A program made the translations under genes and the position numbers. Source: Spirochaetia bacterium (GTDB taxonomy: Bacteria > Spirochaetota > Spirochaetia > CADAEX01). From it: a stretch of 64,000 nucleotides of DNA. Shown piece after piece: positions 1,026 through 48,203 of the stretch. The stretch is taken from NCBI GenBank assembly GCA_963662795.1, contig OY759746.1, forward strand, positions 192,001-256,000. Direction: 5' to 3'. The notes below the pieces were generated by a model. That model was not told the DNA's origin. It saw nothing but the letters and a program-made list of their open reading frames with translations, and did not search any database. How positions within the stretch are numbered: position 1 is the stretch's first letter; the number at the start of each line of letters is the position of its first letter.

Positions 1026-1144
1026 TTAAATCCTCCATTGCTTTATGTGAAAGTAATTAAATCTTATATAAACTATTGAATAAAACTACCTTATTCCATA
1101 TAAGGATATAAAAAATCCGATAAAAGGTAAACAGGATATTTATT

Positions 1145-1717
1145 ATGGATATAAAATCAATTTGTGTTTTCTGTGCTTCAAGTAATGGACGCAGCACTGT
1201 TTTTGCAGATAAAGCAGAGGAAACCGGAAAAATTATTGCAAAAAAAGGGATAAACCTTGTTTACGGAGGCGGCGGTGTCGGTCTGATGAAAGTAACTGCC
1301 CAGGCAGCACTTGACGGAGGGGCCAGGGTGACCGGAGTAATTCCGGAGCTGATCAGCAGGAAGGTAAGGCCCCTTGAAGGGGTAAAAACAATTGTTGTCG
1401 GATCAATGCATGAGAGAAAGAGGAAAATGTATGATCTTTCAGATGCTTTTATAGCCCTTCCCGGTGGAATCGGTACTATGGAAGAGCTTCTGGAAGTCTT
1501 TACATGGAAGCAGATCGGGTATCTTGCAAAACCTGTCGGAATACTCAACACGCATGGATATTACGACAGTCTCATATCACTTCTTGATAACGCGGTTTCC
1601 TGCGGATTTTTAAAACAGGAACAGAGGGACAGTCTTATTATTTCGGACGATCCTGAAGAACTCATTAATCTGATGGAAGAACATGAGCATCAGTATATAG
1701 ATAAATGGTCAAAATAA
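1145..1717 (+). CDS. LOG-family nucleotide 5'-monophosphate phosphoribohydrolase
   Basis: ICVFCASS, LVYGGG, MHERK and PGGIGTMEE motifs. Confidence 0.92.
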   Translation: MDIKSICVFCASSNGRSTVFADKAEETGKIIAKKGINLVYGGGGVGLMKVTAQAALDGGARVTGVIPELISRKVRPLEGVKTIVVGSMHERKRKMYDLSDAFIALPGGIGTMEELLEVFTWKQIGYLAKPVGILNTHGYYDSLISLLDNAVSCGFLKQEQRDSLIISDDPEELINLMEEHEHQYIDKWSK

Positions 1718-1779
1718 CTGCATAATGGTGTATTATTTTGCTATCATATAATCAGGGATCTTAAAATGGGTTTTATTCA

Positions 1780-3384: not shown

Positions 3385-3434
3385 TAAACAGGTAACTCAT
3401 AGTAATCAGGAGCAGTAATACTTACGGAGAAATA

Positions 3435-5039
3435 ATGAATCTTTCTGAATATATTATTGATTTTCTTAAACAGGTGTCTGTAGAGCATGTCTTCGGTATA
3501 TCAGGTGCGAGAATAGAAACCTTTTTCCATGAAATACACAAATCAGAAATAAATATATCCCTTGTAACAGCAAAACATGAATTCTCTGCTGCTGCCATGG
3601 CATCTTCCTATGCCTGGTCCGGAAAATCTTTAGGTGTTGTTTCAACAACATCCGGCGGGGCCGCCTACAATATCATACCTGCTCTTGCCGAGGCTTATTG
3701 CACCGGGACACCGCTTCTTGCGATTATAGGGCAGCCTGCCAATAACAGAAATCTGTACGGCGCATTTCAGGAAACAAGCGGATTAAGCGGGACACCTGAC
3801 CTTATTGCCTCTTTTAAACCTGTTTCAAGGTTCTGTGCAAAAATTGGTTCTGCTGATGAAATACCTGAAATCATAAAGCAGGTTTACAAATTGCTTATAC
3901 TGGAAAAATCGGGACCTGCCGTGCTATTGATCCCTGAAAACCTCTTCATCTGTGAAACCGGGGGAGGAATATTTGAATGGCCCCTCGGAAAACCGGACAG
4001 CGCCATTGCATCAAATACCAGCCGGCAGAGAATTTCCGCAGGAAGGACCGTGTTCATCGCCGGAAGAGATATTTTAAGGGCAGGAGCCAGGAACCAGTTT
4101 TCCGGTCTTGTAAAAAGAATGAGGTGTCCTTTGGTATCAGCCCCGGATGCAAAAGAAGTGTTTGATAATTTCAGCCCGCTTTACAGGGGGACAATCGGGG
4201 TTATGGGTAATCCGTCGGCCCATGAAGCTGTTGAAAGGGCTGATACGGTTATTATCGCTGGAACAGACATGAATGAAACAGCCACATACGGATTAAGGGA
4301 AATCTTAAGTAAAAAAAATATTCTATATGCAGGTAAACTCCCCGTTCATCTGACAAAATTCACTCATATCAGCAGATCAATAATGGATGGCATAAGATAT
4401 ATATCGGAAAATATTGAAGCTGAAGAGGAAGATATACATGGAGATATAACTTACCTTAACAGCACCGGCAGCCCTTATGCCAGGATAATGAAAATAATCG
4501 AAAAAGATATTGTTTCGCCTTCCAATATATCAGTTGATGCCGGTTATTCCGGAATATATGCAGTACACACAATGAAAATACCCGAAGGTTCATCATTTCA
4601 CATATCCCTTTCAACCGCCGGCATGGGGTACAGTTTTGGCGATATAATCGGCGCGGCTGTCGCAACCGGAAGGAAAGGATACCTTATCGCAGGGGATGGT
4701 TCTTTTTTCATGAACGGTTTTGAAATACACACAGCTGTGGAATTAAGCCTGCCTGTAATATTTATAATACTCGACAACAGCGGCCACAGAACATGCAGCC
4801 TGAGGGAAAAAATATATTTCAATGAAATCAGCGGCAGTAATGATTTCAGGGATATATGTATCGGTAAAGGATTTAATGAAATTTTCCCCTCACTTAAATC
4901 GGCAGATGTTCAGACACCAGAGGAGCTTGAATACATTTTAAAGGAAAACAGGGAGCTTGGTTCCCCGCTATTGATTTCCATAAAAATTGATAATGAGGAA
5001 ATACCCCCATACCTGCCTCTGTTTAATAAAAGGAGTTAA
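3435..5039 (+). CDS. ThDP-dependent carboligase (acetolactate synthase-like; NzsH/CqsB3/ScyA-type acyloin synthase candidate)
   Basis: N-terminal FGISG...KHEFSAAAMA (cofactor-activating Glu), TTSGG, and ThDP motif GDGSFFMNG...ILDN. Tightly coupled to SRPBCC and KAS III genes. Confidence 0.85.
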   Translation: MNLSEYIIDFLKQVSVEHVFGISGARIETFFHEIHKSEINISLVTAKHEFSAAAMASSYAWSGKSLGVVSTTSGGAAYNIIPALAEAYCTGTPLLAIIGQPANNRNLYGAFQETSGLSGTPDLIASFKPVSRFCAKIGSADEIPEIIKQVYKLLILEKSGPAVLLIPENLFICETGGGIFEWPLGKPDSAIASNTSRQRISAGRTVFIAGRDILRAGARNQFSGLVKRMRCPLVSAPDAKEVFDNFSPLYRGTIGVMGNPSAHEAVERADTVIIAGTDMNETATYGLREILSKKNILYAGKLPVHLTKFTHISRSIMDGIRYISENIEAEEEDIHGDITYLNSTGSPYARIMKIIEKDIVSPSNISVDAGYSGIYAVHTMKIPEGSSFHISLSTAGMGYSFGDIIGAAVATGRKGYLIAGDGSFFMNGFEIHTAVELSLPVIFIILDNSGHRTCSLREKIYFNEISGSNDFRDICIGKGFNEIFPSLKSADVQTPEELEYILKENRELGSPLLISIKIDNEEIPPYLPLFNKRS

Positions 5040-5040
5040 T

Positions 5041-5685
5041 ATGAATATTCCGGAAATAAGCGTGATTGAAGGGCTTAAAAGGTTTGAAAACTGCGGCATA
5101 GATAAATTTCAGTCGGATCTCATGGAAATGACACATACAGTCTACAGACATGATGATGTATACGGAAATTTCTGTTCAATCCAGGCATACATCGACTGCC
5201 CTCCAGAAACTGTATTCAGCTATATGTCTGACATACACTCCCTTGAAGAATGGACCTACTCCTTAAGGATTTATAAAAAAGTGAAGAACGACCTTTATGA
5301 AGGGGTTGATCTGCTGGGGGAAGACAGCAGTATTTTCTGCCGTGTTGTATCAAACAAAGAGGCATTAACTGTTGATTACCATTGCGCATGGGACCAGGGA
5401 GAGGATCTCTGGATGATCTATCTTAACAGGATAGTACCTGCCGAACCGGTCCTTAAAAAACCGGGATCTGTAGTATTCTGGCAGAACTGCAGGCACCCTT
5501 ATTATGACAATAATCCATATCCTGAAAAAGCACCGCCCGGAAGAGTATGGGTGGGCGAGCTATGGGACTATTTTTACGCAGGGCATACTGTTGAGCTTGA
5601 TAACCTTAAAAAAATACTGGAATACAGGCATAAAAATAATTTTCCTGCCGGCCCCTATCCTGTAAATAAGGTTAATGAAGAATGA
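5041..5685 (+). CDS. SRPBCC/START-fold cyclase-aromatase (NzsI/CqsB2 carbazole synthase-like)
   Basis: Start moved to ATG 5041 behind AGGAG. YIDCPPETVFSYMSD..LEEW is an SRPBCC N-terminal pattern; C-terminal helix GHTVELDNLKKILE; context between ThDP and KAS III genes. Confidence 0.75.
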   Translation: MNIPEISVIEGLKRFENCGIDKFQSDLMEMTHTVYRHDDVYGNFCSIQAYIDCPPETVFSYMSDIHSLEEWTYSLRIYKKVKNDLYEGVDLLGEDSSIFCRVVSNKEALTVDYHCAWDQGEDLWMIYLNRIVPAEPVLKKPGSVVFWQNCRHPYYDNNPYPEKAPPGRVWVGELWDYFYAGHTVELDNLKKILEYRHKNNFPAGPYPVNKVNEE

Positions 5686-6683
5686 ATATTGTGATAAAAG
5701 GGGCTGAAACCTTTTTCCCTGAAAATATTGTTAAAAACAGCTTTTTCACCGGTTCCGGCAAAAGTGAAGACAATCCCATGTTCAGGGGAACATCTGAAAG
5801 AAGACACTGCAAAAGAGATGACATGGGATGGGATTTTCTTGTAAATGCTTCCAGGAAAATTTTCGACAGGTTCGGGATTAAGCCGTCTGAAATTGATCTT
5901 TTTCTTGCCAATTCTGCGATGCTCGACATTCCCTTCACAGGAGCCGGGGCGGCATGGGCACACAAGGCAGGGGCAAAACCCCGTCATGTTTACGATATTC
6001 ACAGCAGCGGCTGCACATCCTTTGTTTTTATGCTTGAACTGGCCGGCATTTTAATGAAATCGAGAAATATCCGCTATGCCCTGATCGGGAATGTGCAGAC
6101 TTCTGCCGGAAAAATATTTGCTCATCCGCAGAATATTGATAAACCCCAGTCTGTTGTCCCGGGTGACGGGTGCGGCGTGGCTCTTCTTGAGGCATCAGAA
6201 AATTTCGGCGAAAACTGCGGGCTCCTGCTGGAAAGCGCAACCAGGTGCCATGGGGAATTCGCTGAGGATATGAATATTGAAAAACCGGACGGAACATACT
6301 GGTGGGAACCTTCTGAAAAAATGGGAATTATTGAATTCTCAAAATCGCGCATCTTTAAAATAATATCAAGAGGGAACAGCTCTGTACCGGACAGGATCAG
6401 TGAAGTCTGTGAAATTAATGGAAAAAAGATTTCAGATATCGATTTTCTCATAACAAATCAGCCTAATCCTGTTTTCTTAAGAAACTGGAGGGAATATGCA
6501 GAGCTGCCTGAAGACAGGATGTATCATTCCTTTGATAAATACGGCAACCTGTTCGGCGCCGCAATGCCTGTTAACCTGTCTGAAGCACTGGAAAAGAAGC
6601 TGATAAAAAAAGGTGATCTTCTCTGCCTGGCAGGATTCTCCCATGCAGGGGATTATTCCTCGGCAACCCTTATTCAGTATTAG
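5682..6683 (+). CDS. 3-oxoacyl-ACP synthase III-like condensing enzyme (NzsJ/CqsB1-like)
   Basis: ATGA overlap with the upstream gene; SGCTSF catalytic Cys, PGDG, TNQPN, YGNLFGA; thiolase-fold length of 333 aa. Confidence 0.85.
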   Translation: MNIVIKGAETFFPENIVKNSFFTGSGKSEDNPMFRGTSERRHCKRDDMGWDFLVNASRKIFDRFGIKPSEIDLFLANSAMLDIPFTGAGAAWAHKAGAKPRHVYDIHSSGCTSFVFMLELAGILMKSRNIRYALIGNVQTSAGKIFAHPQNIDKPQSVVPGDGCGVALLEASENFGENCGLLLESATRCHGEFAEDMNIEKPDGTYWWEPSEKMGIIEFSKSRIFKIISRGNSSVPDRISEVCEINGKKISDIDFLITNQPNPVFLRNWREYAELPEDRMYHSFDKYGNLFGAAMPVNLSEALEKKLIKKGDLLCLAGFSHAGDYSSATLIQY

Positions 6684-6694
6684 AAGTAAATTTT

Positions 6695-7468
6695 TTATGA
6701 AAGCAGGGTAGAGATATCATCCGGGTACAGAACCGTAATACCTTCACTTTCCTCTGCTTCTTCCAATTCTTCAGGAAACACATAGCCCCAGGAAGCAAGA
6801 TAGTATGAAGCGCCTGCAAGTTCTCCGCTGCCCTGAAGGGAATATATGGTTTTCAGCCTGTCTTCAACTATATAAGTGTTTTCAGGGGAAAACTGCTCCT
6901 TTTCAAGTATCTCAAGAATTATCTCTTTTTTGGATTTTCCGGTTTCAAGGCCGTGAATCATACCTGGATCAAACGGGATTCCGAAATAAGACAGAAGCTT
7001 TACGATAAATATCTTTTCCTTGGTTGTGATTATATGCACTGACTTGAAATTATCACGGGCCGTATCAGTCAGGGCAGCAGCGCAATCATAAAGCCTGTGC
7101 CATGAGAGCCAGTTTGCCGGCCTGAGCCTTGCCCAGTCTACGCGCACTTTCCCGTAAAGCCTGACAAGTTTGTCGCGGTTCATGGAAACAGAGGTGAAAA
7201 TCTGCTCCTTCATGAAATTAAACTTCTCTTTTAAAAAACTTTCACTGTAGCCTTCGTCAATTGCCTTTACAAGAGCTATTGCCTCATATCCTGTTTCAAG
7301 TAAAGGCCTGAGTTTTATGAATTTCTGAAGATGTTTTTGAGGGATATCAGAGCCCCTCCACTCATCCCACAATTCACTCCCGGCAAGCCAGCCTGTTCTG
7401 GCTGTTTCGCGGGAGCTGTCGCAGATTATTCCGTCAAAATCGAGAAAAAGGATTTTTTCATGTCTCAT
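6695..7468 (-). CDS. HAD-superfamily hydrolase/phosphatase
   Basis: Motif I FLDFDGIICDS, motif II ITTK, motif IV VEDR, and ASWGY. Confidence 0.85.
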   Translation of the reverse strand: MRHEKILFLDFDGIICDSSRETARTGWLAGSELWDEWRGSDIPQKHLQKFIKLRPLLETGYEAIALVKAIDEGYSESFLKEKFNFMKEQIFTSVSMNRDKLVRLYGKVRVDWARLRPANWLSWHRLYDCAAALTDTARDNFKSVHIITTKEKIFIVKLLSYFGIPFDPGMIHGLETGKSKKEIILEILEKEQFSPENTYIVEDRLKTIYSLQGSGELAGASYYLASWGYVFPEELEEAEESEGITVLYPDDISTLLS

Positions 7469-7473
7469 CCGGT

Positions 7474-7926
7474 TTAAATATTCAGCACTTTTTTCAGGGT
7501 TTCAGGATCAAGGCGGAATTCGGATCCCTTCCCCTCATGAAAGTGATGCTCCCTTAAAAGATGTATTGATATTGTTGAAAAAAGTATTTTCCTGTTATTT
7601 TTTATATTTACGGCCTCACATGTAATCTTCCTGTGTATACCGTCTTCAAAAGGGCAAGGCAGATGCCCCCTTGCCTCAAGAGTCCTTACAAGCCATTTAT
7701 CATCAACAGTTGTAAACTCACCAAGTCCCCTTTCCCCCTGGTCAAGAAGATATTCAAGAGCAGTGCAGACCTTCTCATAATCAAGTGAATGGTATTCCAT
7801 CCGCTCTTCATCTTCCGTAATTATATCTTTGATATCCCTTTCATCATCACCGAGAAATCCGCCTGCCGTAATTACGCCTGGCGCCATGTTTCCTTGAGCT
7901 TTTTTATATGCCGGGGTCATTTTCAT
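7474..7926 (-). CDS. Hypothetical soluble protein (150 aa) with Cys/His cluster, in the Nqr-like operon
   Basis: Start moved to ATG 7926 behind AAGGAGG. Contains GFLG, RGHLPCPF, GIH and HLLREHHFHEG..FRLDP; lies 25 bp after nqrF-like gene. Confidence 0.75.
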   Translation of the reverse strand: MKMTPAYKKAQGNMAPGVITAGGFLGDDERDIKDIITEDEERMEYHSLDYEKVCTALEYLLDQGERGLGEFTTVDDKWLVRTLEARGHLPCPFEDGIHRKITCEAVNIKNNRKILFSTISIHLLREHHFHEGKGSEFRLDPETLKKVLNI

Positions 7927-7951
7927 GCTGTTTTCCTCCTTAAAAGACAAA

Positions 7952-9067
7952 TCAGGCAAAATTATCAAAATAAATCTTTTCAAGCGGAATTCCGTTATCT
8001 GTCAGTACACTTTTACAGGCGGTAATCATGCCCGGACTTCCGCAGAGGTATCCCTCCCTGTCAGCTTCAGTTGAGATTTTCTCTTTTAGATAACTGTTCA
8101 GTACCGCTGTAATCAGTCCTTTTTCACCGCTCCAGTTATCTGATTCCTCCGGTTCCGAGAGCGCTGGTACAAAATGGAACTTGTCCCATTTCTTCTCAAG
8201 TTCCCTAAGCTCATCAAGATAAAACATGTCTTTACCGGTTCTTGCTCCGAAGAAATACCACACTTCCCTGTTGTTGATTTTTCTTTCGTACATATCGTTG
8301 AAAATAGCTTTAAAAGGAGCCATTCCGGAACCGCCTGCGATGCAAACCATTGTCGCATCAGTTTCCATTCTGTGAAAATCGCCGAACGGACCGATTACTT
8401 TAACATTCTGCCCTTCCTTAAGCTCAGTATGAACCCAGGTAGTGGCAATCCCTCCGGGAACCAGTCTTACAAGAATCTCGACATGGTTTTTATCGGAAGG
8501 AGTTGAAGACATGGAATAAGCCCTCTGAGTCTCTCCCTTTATTTTACCGTAGGGGGGGACCACAAGCTGAACATACATCCCTGCCTCAAATTCTATCTTT
8601 TCCTCACCGATTGATATCAAAACCTCTTTTATATCATGCGTTATGTCTTTTATCTTTTCGACAACACCTTCAATCTGTTTTACATTGAACAGAACATCAG
8701 GTATCTCGATTTCAATATCTTTTTTTACCTTGATCTGGCATGATAATCTCGTGTTAATGTCAATCTCTTCTTTTGTAAGATAAGGTATCTCTGTCGGAAG
8801 GTGCGGTCCGACATCGCTTTTAACAACACACTTGCATGCTCCGCAGCTGCCTCTGCCTCCGCAGGCTGAGGGGAGAAAAATATCGTTGCCGGCAAGCAGC
8901 TGGAGAAGGTTTGCTCCGCCCTTTACATCCAGTTCTTTTTTCCCCTTGTTTATGACAATTTTTACAATTCCATAGTTGTTTACAATCATATCCAGAACAG
9001 ATATCAGCGCAGCAAGAACAGCCGCGATACTGGAAACAATCAAAGGCGCAATAATAATAACACTCAT
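7952..9067 (-). CDS. nqrF: NqrF-like NADH-oxidising subunit (TM anchor, 2Fe-2S, FAD, NAD domains)
   Basis: N-terminal TM; SACGGRGSCGAC...RLSCQ; RAYS; GPFG; IAGGSGMAP; YFFGAR; YLCG; C-terminal FDNFA. Confidence 0.9.
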   Translation of the reverse strand: MSVIIIAPLIVSSIAAVLAALISVLDMIVNNYGIVKIVINKGKKELDVKGGANLLQLLAGNDIFLPSACGGRGSCGACKCVVKSDVGPHLPTEIPYLTKEEIDINTRLSCQIKVKKDIEIEIPDVLFNVKQIEGVVEKIKDITHDIKEVLISIGEEKIEFEAGMYVQLVVPPYGKIKGETQRAYSMSSTPSDKNHVEILVRLVPGGIATTWVHTELKEGQNVKVIGPFGDFHRMETDATMVCIAGGSGMAPFKAIFNDMYERKINNREVWYFFGARTGKDMFYLDELRELEKKWDKFHFVPALSEPEESDNWSGEKGLITAVLNSYLKEKISTEADREGYLCGSPGMITACKSVLTDNGIPLEKIYFDNFA

Positions 9068-9079
9068 GAAAAGCTCCTC

Positions 9080-9673
9080 CTACTGTACATTTACCATTCC
9101 GGAAAAACCGATAAATGCCATAGCCATAAAACCGATTGTTATAAGAGTGATACCCGGGCCTTTAAGCCCCGCGGGAACAGGCGCGTTCTGTACTTTTTTC
9201 TGTATTGCAGATAAGGCCATAATGGCAAGCCACCAGCCAAGCCCTGAGCCGATTGAAAAGAAAAGAGTCTGCATAAGATTGTATTTTCTTATCTCGATAA
9301 AAAGGACAACACCAAGAATCGCGCAGTTTACTGTAATAAGGGGAAGAAAAATCCCCAGAGACATGTAAAGAGCGGGAGACACCCTGTCAATTACCATTTC
9401 AAGAACCTGCACCGTGGCTGCAATAACAATAATAAAAACAATATATCTAAGATAAAGAAGTCCGTAGGGAATGAGAATATAATGCAGCACAAGCCAGTTT
9501 ATTATACCTGTGAAACCCAGAACTACCGTGACAGCAAGCCCCAGACCGTTTGAGGATTTCATATCTTTTGAGATTGAAATGAATGAACACATTCCGAGAA
9601 AGTTTGAAAGAAGTATATTGCTTGTAAAAATTGATGCTATAAAAAGCGTTACAAGATTAATGTCAGGCGCCAT
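9080..9673 (-). CDS. nqrE: NqrE/RnfA-family membrane subunit
   Basis: NFLGMCSF, LGIFLPLITVNCAILG, GLKGPGITLITIG; six TM segments. Confidence 0.9.
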   Translation of the reverse strand: MAPDINLVTLFIASIFTSNILLSNFLGMCSFISISKDMKSSNGLGLAVTVVLGFTGIINWLVLHYILIPYGLLYLRYIVFIIVIAATVQVLEMVIDRVSPALYMSLGIFLPLITVNCAILGVVLFIEIRKYNLMQTLFFSIGSGLGWWLAIMALSAIQKKVQNAPVPAGLKGPGITLITIGFMAMAFIGFSGMVNVQ

Positions 9674-10277
9674 TGGTTTTCTCCTTTTTCAGAATCAAGG
9701 TTTTGCTTACCCAGACAACAGCTCCGAGAAGAAAAAACGCGCTCGGAGGCATAACCATTATTGTCCATTTTGTAAAGAATTCAGGCATCACTGGAAATCC
9801 GAATATAGTCCCGAATCCCGCAAGTTCACGTATTGTTGCAATTACAAGAAGTACCCACATATAACCGATTCCAGAAGTTATACCGTCCCAGAAAGATATC
9901 AATGGAGGATTGGATCTAGCAAATGCCTCTGCCCTTCCCATGATAATGCAGTTGGTGATTATAAGTCCTACATAAGGGCCGAGAGATTTGCTGATTTCAG
10001 GAAGATATGCTCTCAGGATTATATCGACAATAATAACGTAAAATGCTATTACAAGTGTCTGTATAATCATTCTTACCTTATCAGGAATAAGAGCTTTCAG
10101 GAGAGAAAGTGTAAAATTTGAAAACCCTGTAACAAAAACGAGGCCAAGCGACATGATCAGGGTATTGGTAAGATTGTTTGTTACAGCAAGTGTTGAACAA
10201 ATTCCAAGTACCTGTATAAAAACAGGATTGTTTGTCCACATATTGCCTTTAAATATTTTTACCGCGCTGCTGTTCAT
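9663..10277 (-). CDS. nqrD: NqrD/RnfE-family membrane subunit
   Basis: NNPVFIQVLGICSTLAVT, YVGLIITNCIIMGRAEAFA, IRELAGFG, PPSAFF. Confidence 0.9.
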   Translation of the reverse strand: MNSSAVKIFKGNMWTNNPVFIQVLGICSTLAVTNNLTNTLIMSLGLVFVTGFSNFTLSLLKALIPDKVRMIIQTLVIAFYVIIVDIILRAYLPEISKSLGPYVGLIITNCIIMGRAEAFARSNPPLISFWDGITSGIGYMWVLLVIATIRELAGFGTIFGFPVMPEFFTKWTIMVMPPSAFFLLGAVVWVSKTLILKKEKTNGA

Positions 10278-10909
10278 TTTCCTCTCCCCTCCTTTGCAAG
10301 TCCTGCAATAACATTGTTGACTATTGTCTGAATTGACGCGCTTGTAAGCGATGCCCCGGTAATGCCCTCAACCTCGCTGTTTGTCGGGTCGCTGTCAGAG
10401 CCTCCTGAACCTTTTCTCACTTTTATGGCCGCATCGTCCGATGCAATTGCCTCATTCCTGAACTGGTCCTTGAACCACTTTTCATCAATCCTTCCGCCGA
10501 GACCTGGAGTTTCGTTGTGGGAGATTATCTCAAGCCCTTTTATCGTTTTAAAATCAGGTGTTACTGCTATAACGCCTGTAATTGTTCCCCAAAGCCCGCT
10601 TCCGGAAAAAAGCTTCAGGACAAGTTCTTCTCCATTGACTGTTGCCTTTATTGTTTTTGTAAATTGAGCAGCATCGCCTTCTGTTTTAGCTACAGCATCC
10701 GGAAAATATTTTTCAAAGAGTTTTTGTGTTTCATTTTTATCCTTAAACTCAACTCCTGCTGACTTAAGAAATGCCGAGTAAAACGATATTCTAGTATTGG
10801 CAGCTGTTTTTTCAGCTGTCAGACTGTCCGCAAGTGAAAGAAAAAATACAAAGAAAAATGACGCGGCAAATGTAAAAATAACTGTATAAAAAAAGTTGTT
10901 TTTATTCAT
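10274..10909 (-). CDS. nqrC: NqrC/RnfG-family FMN-binding subunit
   Basis: Start moved to ATG 10909. N-terminal TM, GSGLWGTI, HNETPGLGGRI, and flavinylation-type motif GITGASLTS. Confidence 0.85.
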   Translation of the reverse strand: MNKNNFFYTVIFTFAASFFFVFFLSLADSLTAEKTAANTRISFYSAFLKSAGVEFKDKNETQKLFEKYFPDAVAKTEGDAAQFTKTIKATVNGEELVLKLFSGSGLWGTITGVIAVTPDFKTIKGLEIISHNETPGLGGRIDEKWFKDQFRNEAIASDDAAIKVRKGSGGSDSDPTNSEVEGITGASLTSASIQTIVNNVIAGLAKEGRGK

Positions 10910-10913
10910 TTCA

Positions 10914-11843
10914 TTACCCCTTTGCCTGCTCCGGCGCAGCTTCCCTGAAAGGACCGGCCTTTTTTTTGGCGACAAGTTCATCAATCAGCGTTGCGAATGT
11001 ATTGCCGAAAAGAATCGCAAAGCTAGTCCCTTCCGGGAAAAGGGAAAATATTCTTACTATTGCCGCTGTAAATCCGATTATTGATCCGTAAATCCACAGG
11101 GAGAGCGGCTTTTTCGGAGCAGATACCGGATCGGTTGTCATGAATACCGCAACAAACAGGATACTTCCGGAAAGAAGTCCTTCAAGAGGGGGAAATGCCT
11201 TTACAACACCGGCAGCAAAGAGAGCTCCTGATAAAACAGTAAAAGATATTAAAGTGGAAGCCATTGTCCGCCAGTTTGCGGTTTTTGTATAAACAAGATA
11301 TAAGGCAGCAAGAATGATCAGAATTGCTGCCCCTTCTCCGGCAGAACCTGCCCTTAACCCTGACAAGAGATGCCACAGGTCAGGAAGTACCCCTTCCCTC
11401 ATCATCTCAAGCGGTGTTGCGCTTGTCATCCCGTCAATAGCTTTAAGGCCGAAAATTGACGGGGCAAGCCATAGCGTTGTCATCTTGCCGGGGAAAGCTA
11501 TATATATAAAAAGGCGCCCTGTAATGGCAGGATTAAAAATATTCCGTCCGAATCCGCCGTAAACACATTTTCCGAATAGAACCCCGAAAATAATTCCTAC
11601 TGCGGCAATCCAGAAAGGGACTGCGGGCGGAAGGGAGAGTGTATAAATCATACAGGTAACAAGAACTGCTTCAGATGTTTTCTTGCCGCTTTTTTTCATA
11701 AACAGATATTCGGTCAGTATGCCTGCGGCAAAGACCAGGACTGAAACAGCAAGGAATTTAATACCATAAATAAAAACAGCAAAAAGAAAGACCGGAGTAA
11801 GTGCATAAAGCACTTTTCTCATTATTTGTTGTTTTTGAAACAA
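10914..11843 (-). CDS. NqrB/RnfD-family subunit (short, RnfD-length form)
   Basis: TTG start behind AGGAGG; YGGFGRNIFNPA, TSATPL (FMN site), GSAGE, FMTTDPVS, FAILFGN; only 309 aa. Confidence 0.88.
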   Translation of the reverse strand: MFQKQQIMRKVLYALTPVFLFAVFIYGIKFLAVSVLVFAAGILTEYLFMKKSGKKTSEAVLVTCMIYTLSLPPAVPFWIAAVGIIFGVLFGKCVYGGFGRNIFNPAITGRLFIYIAFPGKMTTLWLAPSIFGLKAIDGMTSATPLEMMREGVLPDLWHLLSGLRAGSAGEGAAILIILAALYLVYTKTANWRTMASTLISFTVLSGALFAAGVVKAFPPLEGLLSGSILFVAVFMTTDPVSAPKKPLSLWIYGSIIGFTAAIVRIFSLFPEGTSFAILFGNTFATLIDELVAKKKAGPFREAAPEQAKG

Positions 11844-12947: not shown

Positions 12948-14660
12948 CTACATAGCAAAGCCGTTATCAACGCTCAGATCTGTAAAACCTTCAGGAGGAA
13001 GCCCGAAACCGCTGTAGTTAAGATGGCGCAGGGTTGATGTCCTGTAGTCATGTATCATGGTTTTAAGCCATTCAAATTCATCCCCGGTCATGTCTCCTTC
13101 AAGATATTTAAGCATTACCAGCATTGTTTCGTAGCGCCATTCAGTAAGATTGTTTTTCAGAAATTCCTCTTTTGATATCAGGTATTTTTCAAGGACATCA
13201 AAATCTATCGGAGTAGTTTTTTCATCAAAACCCACCCTTTTCCAGAGCCTTGATATATATGGAGGATTATCATCGGCAACAGGGTGCCTTACAATAATCT
13301 GGGATGAATACTGAACCGGTTTATCTGGATCAGAAGGGAGATAGCGCATCTTGTTCTTCATGTCTATCCCCGCCTCCGCAAACAGGCGGCAGAAAACATA
13401 CCAGTTATCAAGCCCTTCTTTCCCCTTTACAGCAGGTTTTTCAAGAAAGACAAGATCTCTGGGACATTTGGGATAACCGAAGACCCATTCCGTATAATAC
13501 GATTTACCTTCAGAGCCTAAAGGCCTTGGAATATGGGGATAGCTGTAATGCCCTGCCGAAATAAAAGCATCCTCAAGTTTTTTAGCAAGAAAATGGCGGG
13601 CAAAATTGTCAAACCCTGAATAAAATGTGTTGCCGTGCCTTATTGAATGCCTCGCTACAGGGAATTCCTGCAGAGTATAGATAATCCCGTCAATTGACCT
13701 GAATCCCGACCTTATCTCAAGATCAAGGGTGTAATCAGGATTCGCCTTAATTCTTTTTGAATAGGCAAGGTCCTGAATCTCGCGGCCTATTTTATATGTT
13801 ATGGTCCTTGTTTTGCATGCTTCAAGCTCCTTTATATGACACTTGTGATGCCTGCTCATGTGGCTTGTTGTTGATTTACGATAGTCAAAGACAAGTTCGC
13901 TCATCCTCTCCATCTGGGGGAAATCGCATGGGGCGCATGACTTCATAAGGAACTCGAGTATAAGCGACATCATCTCGACCCTTTCCGGCTTAAGGTATTT
14001 ATCAAGCTTTTCCCTGTTCTCATCTATAAATTTCTCAAATTTTTTAAAATCTATGTGAAGGCTTTCCGAACCGAAATCAATCCTTTTCCAGAGCTTGGTA
14101 AGCATTTCGTCGGAATCTGAAATACTCGGCTCAAGCATGACAATGTTTTTTATGTAATATCCGTCGTTTTCAACTGTATCATCAAAAATACCTACACCAG
14201 CTTCATTAAAACAACCGGATGCAATATCCCACTCGTCGACTTTTATGGGATACCACTTTCCCGCTTCGTCATCGTAAAACTCTGGATAATAACCCTCATC
14301 GCCGAAGACCCATTCATAATAGTATATTCCGTCAATATCAGACCCGAGAGGCCTTGGAACATGGGAAAACTTATAGCGTCCTGACCTGAAAAAATAGTCG
14401 TCAAGCTTTTTTATAAGCACATGACGGAAGTAAACATTAAGGGCTGAAAGCGTTGCCTTGCTTTCAAGGCTTTTAAGCGTTATGTCTGAATCTGGGTTTG
14501 CGATTTTTGCAAGGTCTGTCCCCCGCGGTATCCTGCAGGCCGCGACAAAATCCTGTTCCGTCCTGATTATCCCGCCAAGCCCGGGAAAAATGTTTCTTAT
14601 CTGAATGTGAACTTCCGCGGAACCGCCGTACCCGCCGCAGCATATTGTTTCTATACCCAT
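12948..14660 (-). CDS. Hypothetical protein with two tandem homologous, kinase-like domains
   Basis: 570-aa ORF with internal duplication: HVPRPLGS..YYYEWVFG versus HIPRPLGS..YYTEWVFG; LWKRIDFG versus LWKRVGFD; DYRKST versus DYRTST. Confidence 0.85.
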   Translation of the reverse strand: MGIETICCGGYGGSAEVHIQIRNIFPGLGGIIRTEQDFVAACRIPRGTDLAKIANPDSDITLKSLESKATLSALNVYFRHVLIKKLDDYFFRSGRYKFSHVPRPLGSDIDGIYYYEWVFGDEGYYPEFYDDEAGKWYPIKVDEWDIASGCFNEAGVGIFDDTVENDGYYIKNIVMLEPSISDSDEMLTKLWKRIDFGSESLHIDFKKFEKFIDENREKLDKYLKPERVEMMSLILEFLMKSCAPCDFPQMERMSELVFDYRKSTTSHMSRHHKCHIKELEACKTRTITYKIGREIQDLAYSKRIKANPDYTLDLEIRSGFRSIDGIIYTLQEFPVARHSIRHGNTFYSGFDNFARHFLAKKLEDAFISAGHYSYPHIPRPLGSEGKSYYTEWVFGYPKCPRDLVFLEKPAVKGKEGLDNWYVFCRLFAEAGIDMKNKMRYLPSDPDKPVQYSSQIIVRHPVADDNPPYISRLWKRVGFDEKTTPIDFDVLEKYLISKEEFLKNNLTEWRYETMLVMLKYLEGDMTGDEFEWLKTMIHDYRTSTLRHLNYSGFGLPPEGFTDLSVDNGFAM

Positions 14661-16355: not shown

Positions 16356-16763
16356 TCAGCTGATCAATGTAAACGGGTTAAAAAGCGGTATACCGAAATG
16401 CTCAAAATCCCTTATATTGCGTGTGGCAAGGACTAAACCCCGCCTCCAGGCTGCAGCCGCGATAAAGGCATCAGCCTGAGTAACTGTTATCCCGCCGGCA
16501 AAAAGACGGCCCCTTGCCTCCCCTGTCCAGACAGCAGTTTCAGTATCAATAGGTATAACCTCAGCATGATCTCCCATAAAACGGCGGAACCAGGCCGCTT
16601 TCTCAAGATAATTTTTCCTCATCAGGTCGGAAAGAATTTCTTCAGCTGTTATTACACTTATATTGATTTTTTTAATCTCCTTGAACCACTCAAGAACGCG
16701 CAAATCAGGATGCGGTTTCATTATTTCGCTTATTACATTGGTATCAGCAAGATAATTATTCAT
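16356..16763 (-). CDS. vapC: VapC-type PIN-domain toxin
   Basis: YLADTNVISE, EEI, ADAFIAA and LATRNIRDF acidic PIN motifs. Confidence 0.92.
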   Translation of the reverse strand: MNNYLADTNVISEIMKPHPDLRVLEWFKEIKKINISVITAEEILSDLMRKNYLEKAAWFRRFMGDHAEVIPIDTETAVWTGEARGRLFAGGITVTQADAFIAAAAWRRGLVLATRNIRDFEHFGIPLFNPFTLIS

Positions 16764-17023
16764 TTTACACTGCCTTCATAACCAGGTCTGTCGCTTCTGA
16801 CAGGAGTCTCAAAATCACCTTCCCGCAAATTTATATCAGCAAGTTCATCAAGCACGTGAGTCAGATCAGGCATAAAAACAGATTTATTTGAATTGTAAAG
16901 TTCCCAGTCAATAAGGACAGCCTCAGGTTTTCCGTGCCGCATAATAAGCTGGGGAGATTCATGGGTTAAATCAAGTATTTTTGATATTTTAAGTTTTGCT
17001 TCCGCTGCGTTCCATGAAGTCAT
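16760..17023 (-). CDS. Phd/YefM-family antitoxin
   Basis: WNAAEAKLKISKILD...PQLIMRHGKPEAVLI; 4-bp overlap with the toxin gene. Confidence 0.88.
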   Translation of the reverse strand: MTSWNAAEAKLKISKILDLTHESPQLIMRHGKPEAVLIDWELYNSNKSVFMPDLTHVLDELADINLREGDFETPVRSDRPGYEGSVK

Positions 17024-34561: not shown

Positions 34562-35137
34562 TTGTCTGATGTAGAAATGAGAGATGAGTTAATAAATGCC
34601 GCATCGGGAGTTTTTGCCAAATACGGTTACAAAAAAACCAATATGGATGACATCGCTGCCGTTTTAAGCAAGGGAAAAACCTTTATTTATTATTATTTCA
34701 AAAACAAAGAGGATATTTTTCAGGCTGTTCTTGCTGATGAGGCTGACAAGCTTTTGAAAGCACTTGCGGAAACAGCAGAATCAGAATCACTCCCGGAAAA
34801 AAAGCTTAAAATATTTGTACTGGTATGGGCAAACACACTCATGGAACTTGACAACTATTATCAGATTATTAAAACCGAGTATTTCAGCAATAAAGATTTT
34901 TTCAAAACCCTCAGGGAAAAAATTGATGAAAAGCAGCATGAAATACTCACTTCAATTTTCAGAGAGGGAACATTATCGGGAAGATTTAAAAAACTTGACC
35001 CCGAATGGCTGGCCTTGACCTTTTTTACTGCCATGAAAGGATTTGAGCTGCCTCTGCTTAAGAGGAACAGCTTTGAGGATATAGCAACAAGAATTGATGA
35101 TCTTTTAAATCTTCTTTTAAACGGGCTACTTGCTTAA
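34562..35137 (+). CDS. TetR/AcrR-family transcriptional regulator
   Basis: AASGVFAKYGYKKTNMDDIA...KTFIYYYFKNKEDIF helix-turn-helix; TTG start behind AGGAGG. Confidence 0.93.
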   Translation: MSDVEMRDELINAASGVFAKYGYKKTNMDDIAAVLSKGKTFIYYYFKNKEDIFQAVLADEADKLLKALAETAESESLPEKKLKIFVLVWANTLMELDNYYQIIKTEYFSNKDFFKTLREKIDEKQHEILTSIFREGTLSGRFKKLDPEWLALTFFTAMKGFELPLLKRNSFEDIATRIDDLLNLLLNGLLA

Positions 35138-35151
35138 CAGCAGCTATTACA

Positions 35152-37830
35152 TTGGAAAAGGTGGAGGAATACCTGGTGAACAGAATTTTAAAGCATCCGA
35201 AGACAGTAATAACAATTATACTGCTTCTAACAGTTTTTCTTGGAATACAGATACCCGGGATAAAGATAAACAACGAGGTTGAGATATTTCTTCCGGAAAA
35301 CCACAAATCAAAAATCGAATATAACAAAATGAAGGAAACATTCGGCAGCCAGATAATTATGGATGTTGCTGTAAAGGCGAAAGAAGGAACTATTTTTACG
35401 GCAGATAGAATCAACCTTATCAAATCCCTTACAGAGGAATTTGAAAAAATTGAAAATGTTGAGGACGTAACTTCCCTTACAAATGCTGATTATATCGAAG
35501 GGACGGCAGACGGGATGACAGTCTCTCCTATTGCTGAAGACTTTACAGGCAGCGATGAAGAATTAAAAGAAATAAAGCGTAAAGTGACAGACTGGAAAGA
35601 TATGTATGAACTCAACCTCATATCGGAAGATCTTAAAGCGACCCAGATCCTTGTTAAAATCAAACTGGGGGTTTTGGCAGACGGGAAAGAAAAAGTTTAT
35701 CATGAAATGAAAAACATTATAGCGTCACATGACAGCGCGGGAACCGACTTAAGCATTGCGGGAGATCCGGCTGTTATTGTTCTCATAGAAAAGTACATGA
35801 AAAGCGATCTCGTACGTCTTGTCCCTTTTGTAATAATTGTTGTGCTTATTACCCTTTTCCTCTGCTTCAGAACTTCAGGGGGTGTAATTCTGCCGGTAAT
35901 TACTGTCCTTATAAGTACTTTATGGACAATAGGCCTTATGGCCCTGACCGGTGTATATTTTTCTCTTGTTTCTACGACACTTCCGGTTGTCCTTATTGCA
36001 GTGGGCAGCGCATACGGCATTCACCTTGTAAACGATTACTACAGTGAAATAAGGGTTGCCGGAAAAAAGCTGTCCCACGAAGAACACAGCAGCATTGTTG
36101 AGCAAAGCCTTCACAAGGTGGAAAAACCTGTGTTTCTTGCAGCTCTTACTACAATAGTCGGATTCGGCTCCCTTGCGACCAGCCCGATTATACCGCTGAA
36201 GCATTTTGCCCTGTTCTCCGGAATCGGAGTACTGGCAGCTCTCTTGGTTACTTTAACAATGATACCGGCGCTTCTTGTTATGCGCCACAACGCGATGAAG
36301 CTCAACAGAATATCGGAAAAATCCATTCTGGACAGATTTTTTAAAAGTCTGTCGGTATTTATCGAAAAAAGAAAAACAGTACTGTCTGCAATTGTTTTTA
36401 TAATACTTGTAGTTTCCTGCATAGGGATATTAAGGATCAATGTTGACAACATACTTATATCCAACTTCAGGGAAAAAGAAGATATCCGTGTAGCAGATAA
36501 CATGATAAGGGAAAATTTCGGAGGGACAAAGGTATTCAGCATTATTGTCAAAGGAAAGGAAAAGGGAGACCTTACTGACCCGGCAATACTCAAGGCAATG
36601 GATAACCTTGACACTTACCTTGAAACAGGCTTTGCCGAAGTCGGAAAGGTAATTTCCTTCTCGGATTTCATAAAAAGAATGAACCGGGTTATGCACTATC
36701 CTCAGCAGGACAGTTCTGAAGTGGCAATGGAAAATACAGCCGCCGCCGGGAAACAGGAGGCTGGAGGCTTTGGCAGCTTTTTCAGTACAGATGATGCCGG
36801 TACATCATCATTTTTTGAATCAGCAGAAACTGTTGATACAGTTTCATCAATACCTGAAGTAATATTTGATAATCTTGATGAAAAGATGACAGCCCGCAGT
36901 TTTCTTGAAATACTCTCCGGCGCGGCTTCAGAGTCAGACACTTTAAACCCTGACGCAGACACGGTCCTCAGGGGAATTTACAGAAAATACAACTACAGAG
37001 GTGAAGATTATAATGAAATACCTTCAGACCCTTCTAGATATCCTGTTGAAACAAAAGAAGAGCTGAAAAATCTGATTTCCCAGTACCTGCTGCTTTATTC
37101 AGGGAACCTCGACTCATACTCTGATGATGCAATAGAACCTTCTCAGGCTTTAATGATAGTCGAGCTGAAAACAATAAATACAATTCCGGTAAAAAAGATT
37201 ACAAAGGAAATAAACAGTTATGTCTCTGAAAACTTTCCTGAAGGGTATGAAGTAGACATCGCGGGAATTGCGGATATGGAAAACTCGCTTACGACATTAA
37301 TTACCGGGTCGCAGATTTCAAGTCTTGCAGTCTCACTGCTTCTCGTATTCATAATTATTGCGATATCGTATAAATCATTTGCTGCAGGGTTATTCGGGGT
37401 GATACCTCTGGCCTTTACAATAATAATCAATTTCGGCGTCATGGGGTTTACAGGTATCAGACTTGATATGGTAACAGCCCTGATCGCATCAATAGCGGTC
37501 GGAACAGGTATAGATTATACCATCCATTTCATGAGCGCCTATAAAAGGGAAAGAAACTCAGAAAGCAGGCTTGAAGTTGTTACTGAAAAAACACTTTCCT
37601 CAACCGGCCGTGGTATATTATTCAATGCAGGCGCGGTGGCCGCAGGATTTCTTGTCCTTTGTTTCTCAAACTTTACAACGCTTAGATATATCGGATTTCT
37701 GACAGCACTTACAATGTTTACATCATCATTTGCATCCCTTACCGTACTGCCTGTGCTGCTCAATACATTCAAGCCCGCTTTTATGGCAAAAAAAACAGAA
37801 CAGAAACTTGTTACAGAATCCAATAACTGA
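35152..37830 (+). CDS. MMPL/RND-superfamily lipid transporter
   Basis: Two repeats of TM + periplasmic domain + five TMs; AVGSAYGIH, LTTIVGF, GTGIDYTIH. Confidence 0.9.
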   Translation: MEKVEEYLVNRILKHPKTVITIILLLTVFLGIQIPGIKINNEVEIFLPENHKSKIEYNKMKETFGSQIIMDVAVKAKEGTIFTADRINLIKSLTEEFEKIENVEDVTSLTNADYIEGTADGMTVSPIAEDFTGSDEELKEIKRKVTDWKDMYELNLISEDLKATQILVKIKLGVLADGKEKVYHEMKNIIASHDSAGTDLSIAGDPAVIVLIEKYMKSDLVRLVPFVIIVVLITLFLCFRTSGGVILPVITVLISTLWTIGLMALTGVYFSLVSTTLPVVLIAVGSAYGIHLVNDYYSEIRVAGKKLSHEEHSSIVEQSLHKVEKPVFLAALTTIVGFGSLATSPIIPLKHFALFSGIGVLAALLVTLTMIPALLVMRHNAMKLNRISEKSILDRFFKSLSVFIEKRKTVLSAIVFIILVVSCIGILRINVDNILISNFREKEDIRVADNMIRENFGGTKVFSIIVKGKEKGDLTDPAILKAMDNLDTYLETGFAEVGKVISFSDFIKRMNRVMHYPQQDSSEVAMENTAAAGKQEAGGFGSFFSTDDAGTSSFFESAETVDTVSSIPEVIFDNLDEKMTARSFLEILSGAASESDTLNPDADTVLRGIYRKYNYRGEDYNEIPSDPSRYPVETKEELKNLISQYLLLYSGNLDSYSDDAIEPSQALMIVELKTINTIPVKKITKEINSYVSENFPEGYEVDIAGIADMENSLTTLITGSQISSLAVSLLLVFIIIAISYKSFAAGLFGVIPLAFTIIINFGVMGFTGIRLDMVTALIASIAVGTGIDYTIHFMSAYKRERNSESRLEVVTEKTLSSTGRGILFNAGAVAAGFLVLCFSNFTTLRYIGFLTALTMFTSSFASLTVLPVLLNTFKPAFMAKKTEQKLVTESNN

Positions 37831-37846
37831 TTAAGGAGAAAATATA

Positions 37847-38641
37847 ATGTACAGAAACGGTTTAATGAAAAAGTATTTTTTTACGGCAGCAGCAGCCCTG
37901 TCAGCCTTACTTGCCCCTTCTGCTTTCGCAATAACAGGAACAGAAATAGCTCAGAATGTTCACGACAGGGACAATGGCGATTCAGTGCATGCCCTGATCC
38001 AGATGGACCTTGTTGATAAAAACGGAGGCATCAATTCAAGACTGGTTGAGACATGGGAAATGGAAGATGAAAAGGACCTTGACATGATGGTCATGATGTT
38101 CCACCAGCCTGCGTCAGTCGCTAACACAAGATTTCTTGTTATGGAAAATGAAGGAAGGGACGACGACAAGTGGATATACCTGCCTGCCCTCAAAAAAGTA
38201 AGACGAATTGATTCAAGCGAAGGAAGCAACTCATTTATGGGAACAGACTTGAGCTATGATGATATGGAAACACGAAAAGTTGAGGAAGATACTCACGAAC
38301 TCTTAAAAGAAGAGAAAATCGGCGACTATGACTGTTATGTTGTCAAGGCTGTTTCAATTGATCCTTCAAACTCACAATATTCACAGAGGATAAGCTGGAT
38401 TGATAAAAACACATGGATTCCCGTAAAAATGGAACTTTATGACAAGAAAGGGACCCTCGAGAAAGTTATGACGGCGGAAAAAATAGAAAAGGTACAGGAT
38501 TACTGGTCTATTCTCCATACAACAATGAAAAATGTCCAGACAGGGCACAGTACGGTTCTTACAATGAAAAAACTTGTTTACGATGAGAAACTTAACAGGG
38601 CGTTATTTACCACGCAGTTCCTTTCAGCGGGAAGAATCTAG
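37847..38641 (+). CDS. Outer-membrane lipoprotein-sorting (LolA-like) periplasmic protein
   Basis: Signal peptide; DDKWIYLPALKKVRRI and SFMGTDLSYDD motifs. Confidence 0.88.
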   Translation: MYRNGLMKKYFFTAAAALSALLAPSAFAITGTEIAQNVHDRDNGDSVHALIQMDLVDKNGGINSRLVETWEMEDEKDLDMMVMMFHQPASVANTRFLVMENEGRDDDKWIYLPALKKVRRIDSSEGSNSFMGTDLSYDDMETRKVEEDTHELLKEEKIGDYDCYVVKAVSIDPSNSQYSQRISWIDKNTWIPVKMELYDKKGTLEKVMTAEKIEKVQDYWSILHTTMKNVQTGHSTVLTMKKLVYDEKLNRALFTTQFLSAGRI

Positions 38642-38655
38642 GGAGATCATAGATA

Positions 38656-48118: not shown

Positions 48119-48203
48119 TAATTTTATATAAATAAATCGTTTGACACAATATATTTTCATAGGTTATTGTGTCAATAGTTATGTTCAGGGAGGTATCCGG
48201 AAA

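Follow-up and report, generated by a model that had tools for sequence, protein, structure and literature searches.

A stretch of 64,000 nucleotides of spirochaete DNA (Spirochaetia bacterium, assembly GCA_963662795.1, contig OY759746.1, positions 192,001 to 256,000; hereafter the window) carries a cassette of three genes whose enzymes probably form an acyloin from an aryl-pyruvate, acylate it and cyclise the result, so that the product would be an alkyl-carbazole diol or quinone. The three open reading frames (ORFs), named A, B and C in the order in which they lie, are predicted to encode a carboligase dependent on thiamine diphosphate (ThDP), a cyclase with the SRPBCC (Bet v1-like) fold and an enzyme resembling beta-ketoacyl-ACP synthase III (KASIII; ACP, acyl carrier protein). 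Coupled in translation, the three would make up a single operon for a divergent form of the machinery with which bacteria build the carbazole core. The homologies of the proteins, the conservation of the catalytic residues of the cyclase, the linkage of the trio across phyla and purifying selection on the genes are the observations on which this is based. Bacterial carbazoles are antioxidant and antibiotic scaffolds, and the biosynthesis of their core has been worked out in only a few Streptomyces clusters.

According to the available part of a 2020 review (PMC7466098), pyruvate and indole-3-pyruvate are joined by a ThDP enzyme, and the resulting beta-keto acid is condensed with an acyl thioester by a KASIII-like enzyme; the product is unstable and is caught by the cyclase, which builds the A ring to give a catechol that oxidises spontaneously to the ortho-quinone. 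Modelled on these steps of CqsB3, CqsB1 and CqsB2 (or NzsH, NzsJ and NzsI), the spirochaete pathway would begin with an aryl-pyruvate supplied by an unlinked host aminotransferase, most likely indole-3-pyruvate derived from tryptophan. ORF C would load an acyl group, from a primary-metabolism acyl-CoA or an acyl-ACP of fatty-acid synthesis, onto Cys111 and then join it to the decarboxylating beta-keto acid. ORF B would capture the unstable product through Tyr127, Tyr155 and Asp90 and close and aromatise the third ring. Indole-3-pyruvate, pyruvate and a fatty acyl thioester would together give a 1-alkyl-2-methyl-carbazole-3,4-diol, which would become the ortho-quinone by oxidation in air. All the substrates, the product and the decarboxylative condensation by a KASIII with a Cys-Asn-Asn active site are proposed by analogy. 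The cassette fits the published scheme because its genes are linked, fusion proteins join a KASIII to a cyclase, an aminotransferase recurs beside related loci and prediction weakly supports a complex between the KASIII and the cyclase.

The three enzymes

By sequence comparison ORF B is clearly a true homologue of the CqsB2/NzsI family. A phmmer comparison with CqsB2 (6ipv) gave an E-value of 1.3e-48 and 168.5 bits, with residues 15-197 of the 214 aligned to 30-221 of 6ipv_A, and the only Pfam match was a sub-threshold one to Polyketide_cyc2 (17.5 bits; cutoff 27.4). An AlphaFold model based on 23 sequences of the family (predicted local distance difference test score, pLDDT, 89.2; predicted template-modelling score, pTM, 0.88) has a helix at residues 15-32 ahead of a helix-grip core, that is, an N-terminal helical arm on a Bet v1-like/SRPBCC fold. 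A Foldseek search with this model returned 6ipv_A as the best match (E 4.2e-20, TMq 0.71) and a runner-up at E 7.3e-07, other Bet v1-like proteins being at least 13 orders of magnitude weaker. The large root-mean-square deviation of 16.7 between the model and 6ipv_A probably reflects the position of the arm. Type II polyketide aromatase/cyclases of the TcmN/WhiE-ORFVI type share the fold, as do other Bet v1-like proteins, and a structural resemblance of CqsB2 to aromatase/cyclases is noted in the accessible text of the review (PMC7466098); the low Polyketide_cyc2 score and the Foldseek margin nevertheless set ORF B apart from them.

The catalytic residues of CqsB2 are given there as Glu105, Tyr144 and Tyr172 (PMC7466098). 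On the printed phmmer alignment, along which positions were counted by hand, Tyr144 and Tyr172 fall on Tyr127 and Tyr155 of ORF B, both invariant in 26 of 26 clade sequences. Glu105 falls on Asp90, and Asp is at least 90% conserved among the same 26 sequences. Across the family representatives this column holds D, E or, once, N, and its acidic character is kept in ORF B.

In KASIII enzymes the catalytic triad is Cys-His-Asn, and the His is catalytic. ORF C has the Pfam domains ACP_syn_III_C and ACP_syn_III, the same fold and domains as FabH, and scored 98.9 against the NCBIfam fabH model (TIGR00747), well under its cutoff of 292.1. When ORF C was aligned to S. aureus FabH (1zow), Cys111 matched the Cys and Asn289 the Asn of the triad, but Asn259 stood in place of the His (TNQPN versus PHQAN). 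Among 79 clade members the Cys is present in all, Asn replaces the His in 76 with gaps in the remaining 3, and the position of Asn289 is Asn in 76.

In place of CqsB1 and NzsJ, 123 stand-ins were used: 3 fusion proteins and 120 proteins related to the KAS half of the fusion P0129. That half and these relatives derive from sources that include Streptomyces, Kitasatospora, Sorangium, Nostoc and Legionella. ORF C scored a median of 123.5 bits against them (range 59-150), compared with 72.4 bits against the best solved FabH, and the T-x-Q-P-N and G-N-L-F motifs are common to ORF C and the stand-ins, all 123 of which also keep the Asn of the Asn289 position. Because of these higher scores and common motifs, ORF C would belong to a wider group of cyclase-linked KASIII enzymes. 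Within that group its sequence marks it as a distinct Cys-Asn-Asn branch, which does not have the His that defines the CqsB1-like enzymes.

Single-chain fusions of a KASIII with a C-terminal CqsB2-like domain occur naturally (P0129, P0168 and P0211, of 587, 549 and 567 aa). A complex between ORF C and ORF B was weakly supported by prediction. It scored 0.45 against 0.00 for the best of three controls, runs agreed in at least 77% of contacts and the partners had a pLDDT of at least 85. Of 157 solved complexes 116 reach the mark that it passed, as do 2 of 215 mismatches; both of these mismatches, but only 18 of the 157 complexes, do so with a score of 0.60 or less. Two further proteins, P0172 and P0189, are fragments that join the C-terminal domain of a ThDP enzyme to the N-terminus of a cyclase; these fusions may be real, or gene calling may have created them, the ThDP and cyclase genes lying one base apart in the window.

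ORF A carries the Pfam domains TPP_enzyme_N, TPP_enzyme_M and TPP_enzyme_C (E 3.6e-27, 6.2e-19 and 2.2e-18). All of its NCBIfam scores were far under the cutoffs: 166 against 539 for the best model (PRK08199), 162.4 against 538.35 for acolac_lg (TIGR00118) and 117.1 against 1000 for the ScyA-related model NF035927, with the other acetohydroxyacid and acetolactate synthase models also far short. Its best solved relatives were BbmA (136.7 bits) and CsmA (113.9 bits), followed by catabolic acetolactate synthases. Nothing relevant was found in the literature on BbmA and CsmA, and their function plays no part in the argument. Against the cyclase-linked ThDP genes of 77 related loci ORF A scored 190-797 bits. 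Of 78 aligned clade members, 74 retain the catalytic Glu49 and the others have gaps there; GDG at 420-422, from the cofactor motif GDG...N(D)N, occurs in all 78. By position and family ORF A would be the counterpart of NzsH, CqsB3 and CbzD, and by the NCBIfam cutoffs and its gene context it does not appear to behave as a housekeeping IlvB.

The nearest relatives of all three proteins are in a Spirochaetia metagenome-assembled genome (MAG; locus L001, trio at 4393-7643), with amino-acid identities of 66% for ORF A, 81% for ORF B and 84% for ORF C. The corresponding dN/dS values of 0.17, 0.09 and 0.08, read with a dS of 1.3-1.5 that is near saturation, indicate that all three genes are under purifying selection and make ORF A the fastest-diverging of the three.

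Much of this agrees with a first-pass annotation made from the sequence alone. Its tightly coupled genes, with a gap of 1 bp and an ATGA overlap, are borne out by the coordinates (5039/5041 and 5682/5685), and its naming of a ThDP enzyme, a 214-aa SRPBCC protein and a FabH-like enzyme by the TPP_enzyme and ACP_syn_III domains and the CqsB2 match. The kinship it drew between the SRPBCC protein and NzsI/CqsB2 was recovered by both phmmer and Foldseek. The order nzsH-I-J that it noted is indeed that of the cassette, and also that of cbzD-E-F. As to the possibility it raised of a housekeeping IlvB, the ThDP enzyme reached 162 bits of the 538 needed.

Linkage and distribution of the trio

A word-indexed search with the cyclase found 1137 proteins at E of 0.001 or less among 1179 candidates. 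The best 120 of these are 56-100% identical, and those that bear a name come from Oligoflexia, Bacteriovoracaceae, Bdellovibrio and Bdellovibrionota. An exhaustive search of representatives at 50% identity gave 147 at E of 1e-3 or less, 93 at 1e-10 or less and 22 at 1e-30 or less, and the family is regarded as compact because only these 22 reach the last threshold. Two patterns specific to the clade, DYHCAWD and [FLM]WDxFYAGH, were then scanned against one genome for each of 185,579 species. They retrieve the window subtype only, the canonical nzs/cqs-type loci lying outside the set of loci so defined. Of at least 600 stretches picked out, no fewer than 599 were confirmed, and a cyclase of the window type is present in at least 599 of these species genomes and in at least 7 phyla, namely Actinomycetota, Bdellovibrionota, Myxococcota, Pseudomonadota, Planctomycetota, Acidobacteriota and Spirochaetota. 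The first-pass annotation had presented the cassette as an oddity of its lineage. This view does not survive the scan, and clusters like NzsH/I/J had already been noted beyond the actinomycetes and called widely distributed (S. cattleya, Sorangium and Scytonema are named in the part of PMC7466098 available). What was already known is the type of system. The literature searched, which covered few subscription journals, does not describe this clade or its extent, hosts and Cys-Asn-Asn KASIII, and its search listings showed no paper on genes of this kind from spirochaetes or Bdellovibrio.

Linkage was assessed in the best 80 of the confirmed loci, a sample biased towards the query and in which the ORF starts of high-GC genomes were not curated. 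By NCBI phylum these comprise 48 from Actinomycetota, many of them Mycobacteriaceae, Nocardia and Streptomyces, 10 from Bdellovibrionota, 7 from Myxococcota, 6 from Pseudomonadota, 4 from Planctomycetota, 3 from Acidobacteriota and 2 from Spirochaetota. Clustering of their ORFs placed a KAS gene beside the cyclase in 78/80 and a ThDP gene in 77/80, an arrangement far beyond chance. The order is ThDP-cyclase-KAS in 61 loci and cyclase-KAS-ThDP in 12, so that 73 of the 80 have one of two fixed orders; 3 have another order and 4 are incomplete, two of these (L018 and L020) being cut by contig ends. The cyclase of an Oligoflexia MAG (L011) is the sole partnerless one among the loci not cut in this way. 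The synteny survey that the first-pass annotation had proposed thus found the trio held together well beyond the spirochaetes, and its suggestion of a spirochaete host was upheld, L001 being nearest for all three proteins and the window IlvC 84-85% identical to proteins named as from Spirochaetaceae, Spirochaetes or a Spirochaetia MAG.

Only two other genes are frequent neighbours, a class I/II aminotransferase (42/80) and a cytochrome P450 (13/80). Because an aminotransferase is adjacent in 42 of the 80, a 2-oxo acid derived from an amino acid is supported as a substrate. In actinomycete and myxobacterial loci this aminotransferase is of a HisC-like kind; Bacteriovoracaceae have one of another class I type. 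The three spirochaete copies (the window, L001 and L030, the last from Treponema) are bare trios among unrelated neighbours with no adjacent aminotransferase. A regular-expression screen of the 80 loci for carrier proteins, a crude one that may miss some, gave 10 ORFs, of which Pfam confirmed a PP-binding domain in 3 (L012, L035 and L058), the other 7 being judged spurious by eye only.

In Mycobacteriaceae (L072, 148-9201, and 12 similar loci) an operon of ThDP, cyclase, KAS and aminotransferase genes directly follows secY, adk, map and genes for an extracytoplasmic function (ECF)-type sigma factor and a zf-HC2 anti-sigma factor, and a MarR-family gene comes after it. The operon occupies a conserved insertion site in a housekeeping neighbourhood. 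In a Candidatus Anammoxibacter MAG (L002, 3181-9931) a DUF429 protein gene precedes the trio and genes for a methyltransferase and a cytochrome P450 follow it, the P450 being unexpected in a genome with an anammox label.

Departures from the carbazole systems and alternative readings

Several features of the cassette weigh against the formation of a carbazole. The first is the position of the cyclase. A careful maximum-likelihood tree of 49 rows (the window, 35 of the 80 loci, 12 representatives and the cyclase half of P0129, but not the other 45 loci, nor 10 representatives that were short or on long branches; the tree is taken as unrooted) splits 36 window-type rows from 13 CqsB2-side rows with support of 100/99. 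The CqsB2-side stand-ins also outscore ORF B in comparison with CqsB2 itself, at 213 bits for P0138, 241 for P0144 and 320.6 for the cyclase half of P0129 against 168 for ORF B. No characterised member of the window clade was found in the literature searched. On these sequences the window clade is separate from all characterised enzymes, and chemistry of the NzsJ/CqsB1 type is carried over to it by analogy, not by membership. The same tree pairs ORF B with the cyclase of L001 (100/97), and the Treponema copy does not pair with these two. A quick tree of 103 rows, superseded by that of 49, had many long branches and supported the split at only 94/88 by the Shimodaira-Hasegawa-like approximate likelihood ratio test (SH-aLRT); it placed ORF B in a group of 15 rows, mostly Bdellovibrionota (SH-aLRT 95). 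The cyclase trees mix phyla.

The enzymes themselves have also diverged. ORF B is about 39% identical to CqsB2 in the structural alignment, and the catalytic Glu105 has become Asp. ORF C is 23-30% identical to the CqsB1-like stand-ins; of these 122 of 123 have the His where ORF C has Asn, and its reaction may differ. ORF A and ORF C were likened to NzsH/CqsB3 and NzsJ/CqsB1 through stand-ins and not through the real sequences. The aryl-pyruvate would have to come from elsewhere in the genome. No aminotransferase was found in the window, nor any P450, when the two aminotransferase types and the P450 of related loci were used as phmmer queries against its ORFs of at least 80 aa, and the source is assumed. 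Linkage has its exceptions, in that L041 has no ThDP gene in the available stretch and L011 (cyclase at 5929-6621) has neither a ThDP nor a KASIII gene within 6 kb on either side. The altered active site of the KAS, the separate clade and the change from Glu to Asp leave real room for different chemistry.

With the carquinostatin and neocarazostatin systems of Streptomyces the cassette shares the three families, their placing in one operon, the order of nzsH-I-J and the Tyr pair of the cyclase. It differs from them in its host and, beyond the divergence just described, in having no ACP (NzsE/CqsB6), no NzsF/CqsB5 and no aminotransferase, prenyltransferase or P450 gene. The absence of an adjacent ACP, aminotransferase, prenyltransferase or tailoring gene had been seen in the first pass, and scans of the flanking ORFs and the phmmer searches agree with it. 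The description of the cassette as stripped down therefore stands, although such minimality is not unprecedented. As far as the accessible part of the source goes, the carbazomycin (cbz) cluster has the order ThDP-cyclase-KASIII (CbzD-E-F), no ACP or NzsF homologue and an acyl donor proposed to come from primary metabolism (PMC11610953). In these respects cbz resembles the cassette, but it also has an aminotransferase (CbzB), a methyltransferase, a short-chain dehydrogenase/reductase and a flavin adenine dinucleotide protein, for none of which the window cassette has a counterpart, and CbzE, identical to CqsB2 at 141 of 207 positions in the same partial source (PMC11610953), lies on the canonical side, far closer to CqsB2 than ORF B. 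The identification of the trio as that of the carbazole pathway thus holds for the homology of the cyclase and for the order of the genes; it is weakened by the clade split and by a KAS without its catalytic His. The tree suggested for the cyclase had the same mixed outcome, confirming a homologue of CqsB2 that is nonetheless set apart from the CqsB2-side stand-ins.

It is possible, though unlikely, that the same three steps act on another 2-oxo acid, such as phenylpyruvate or 4-hydroxyphenylpyruvate, or on another donor, to close a ring that is not a carbazole, as in a diol or quinone of the naphthalene type or a product resembling a furanone. Such a change would suit a clade distinct from all CqsB2-side representatives, in which the catalytic His of the KAS is replaced throughout and the ThDP enzyme evolves fastest (66% identity to L001 against 81-84%), and the recruitment of two unrelated types of aminotransferase implies that the amino-acid precursor need not be uniform. 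HisC-like aminotransferases are in keeping with an aromatic amino acid, without pointing to any one of them. The cyclase, on the other hand, retains the residues proposed for the carbazole-forming mechanism, and closure of the CqsB2 type, as described in the available text, requires the nucleophilic C2=C3 pi electrons of the indole, which a benzene ring lacks (PMC7466098). Similarly doubtful is the broader proposal of an uncharacterised sister lineage of the carbazole machinery, in which the Cys-Asn-Asn KASIII and the distinct cyclase would lead to a different class of lipophilic aromatic catechol or quinone, perhaps with a redox role and not an antibiotic one; its product would differ from the Streptomyces carbazoles through the precursor, the acyl donor or the ring outcome.

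A role of the product in the physiology of the cell itself, as a lipophilic redox-active catechol or quinone serving as electron carrier or antioxidant and possibly tied to the Nqr/Rnf-like genes that converge on the trio in the window, seems rather improbable. This concerns the role of the product and not its chemistry, and is compatible with a carbazole. Strong purifying selection, the occurrence of the subtype in 7 phyla or more and no fewer than 599 species genomes, the convergent nqrBCDEF-like operon and the housekeeping neighbourhood of the Mycobacteriaceae operon, beside a sigma/anti-sigma pair and a MarR gene, would all be in keeping with such a role. The nqr neighbourhood, however, is not kept in L001 or L030, the distribution is patchy (those 599 or more are out of 185,579), and the phyla are mixed in the tree, as expected of a mobile accessory trait. 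A functional tie to the nqr-like operon as a conserved feature was rejected, these two spirochaete loci having different neighbours.

In scytonemin biosynthesis a ThDP enzyme couples indole-3-pyruvate as an acyloin and an enzyme-guided ring closure onto the indole follows. That the cassette is a system like ScyA/ScyC, coupling two aryl-pyruvates with subsequent cyclisation and decarboxylation, is very improbable. Weak NCBIfam matches do exist, at 117 bits for the ScyA-related model and 31.4 bits (E 1.2e-07) over the first 80 positions of the ScyC model (NF035924), but the cutoffs are 1000 and 400, the ScyC match covers only positions 5-81 of 312, and 78 of the 80 loci have a linked KASIII gene, which the core of scytonemin biosynthesis can do without. 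The least tenable reading, of primary-metabolism genes for IlvB, an unrelated START-domain protein and FabH lying together by chance, draws on acetolactate synthase and FabH being the top NCBIfam names and on an ilvC gene in the same window, and is already contradicted by scores far under the cutoffs (162 against 538 for acolac_lg, 98.9 against 292 for fabH), the loss of the KAS catalytic His, linkage in two fixed orders in 73 of 80 loci and the CqsB2 match of ORF B (E 1.3e-48), with no ilvN-like gene beside ORF A and the ilvC gene 41 kb away.

The formation of an alkyl-carbazole is thus the preferred reading, and such a product would make the cassette a useful yet unsurprising target for genome mining. 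A new scaffold or a physiological redox lipid would widen natural-product mining and the view of accessory metabolism in predatory bacteria and spirochaetes. The spirochaete carries a compact, three-gene version that belongs to a large clade spanning phyla and including culturable Streptomyces, Nocardia and Mycolicibacterium, and the change from His to Asn throughout this clade poses a concrete, testable question about the condensation step. The cassette is accordingly a well-defined target for genome mining and enzymology, without being a surprise in kind.

Organisation and surroundings of the cassette

The three ORFs of the cassette are co-oriented. The stop codon of ORF A (TAA, 5037-5039) is separated by a single base, 5040, from the ATG of ORF B, and the ATG of ORF C overlaps the stop of ORF B by 4 bases (ATGA by coordinates). 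The longest reading frame of ORF B reaches back to a TTG at 4987; homologues start at the ATG at 5041, and this start is favoured because of the AAGGAG hexamer ahead of it. The features are collected in the table below.

Table. Coordinates of the cassette and of other features in the window (position 1 is the first letter of the window)
Feature	Position	Strand	Description
ORF A	3435..5039	+	534 aa, ATG start; predicted ThDP-dependent carboligase, acetolactate-synthase-like superfamily
AAGGAG	5030..5035	+	ribosome-binding-like hexamer read from the sequence; 5 bases 5' of the ORF B ATG, within the end of ORF A
ORF B	5041..5685	+	214 aa; predicted CqsB2/NzsI-family SRPBCC (Bet v1-like) cyclase
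ORF C	5682..6683	+	333 aa; predicted KASIII-like condensing enzyme or acyltransferase, Cys111-Asn259-Asn289 set
HAD-like hydrolase gene and ORF 5' of it	within 6695..7983	-	257 aa and 169 aa
nqrF-, nqrE-, nqrD-, nqrC- and nqrB-like genes	7952..11843	-	five genes
ORF	12948..14660	-	570 aa; no Pfam or NCBIfam match
PIN-domain gene and preceding ORF	16356..17023	-	135 aa and 87 aa
TetR regulator, MMPL/RND-like transporter, LolA-like/DUF1329 protein, protein without family	34562..39963	+	transporter 892 aa, last protein 435 aa
ilvC	48141..49670		

On the same strand, a LOG-like gene and a Cache-GGDEF gene lie 5' of the cassette. On its 3' side the genes converge on it. The gene for the HAD-like hydrolase ends 11 bases short of the KAS stop codon. 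The ORF 5' of it matches nothing in Pfam or NCBIfam and overlaps the nqrF-like gene at its end. Neither the hydrolase gene nor this ORF adjoins the trio in L001 or L030. The nqr-like genes score about equally with the Rnf A, E, G and D models, and no nqrA-like or rnfB/C-like gene is adjacent to them. With 309 aa the NqrB/RnfD-like protein is short, the NqrF-like one scores 278.9, just below its cutoff of 295, and the set may encode an unusual Nqr/Rnf hybrid complex. Pfam and NCBIfam scans of the flanking ORFs found no carrier protein, aminotransferase, prenyltransferase or P450.

A scan of positions 1000-8200 for promoters and terminators gave 19 and 8 sites, respectively, where 16.3 and 6.5 were expected from shuffled sequences; with counts so near expectation it gives no evidence either way on co-transcription with the upstream GGDEF gene. 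Scans of the window for tRNAs and Rfam families gave no matches. The GC content of the cassette (0.39-0.42) is the same as that of its surroundings, and there is therefore no compositional sign of recent transfer.

Further away, the set of genes that opens with the TetR regulator may encode an exporter of lipophilic compounds; no link to the cassette, 28 kb away, was shown. The gene for the PIN-domain protein is directly preceded by the 87-aa ORF, and the two resemble a toxin-antitoxin pair of the VapBC type.

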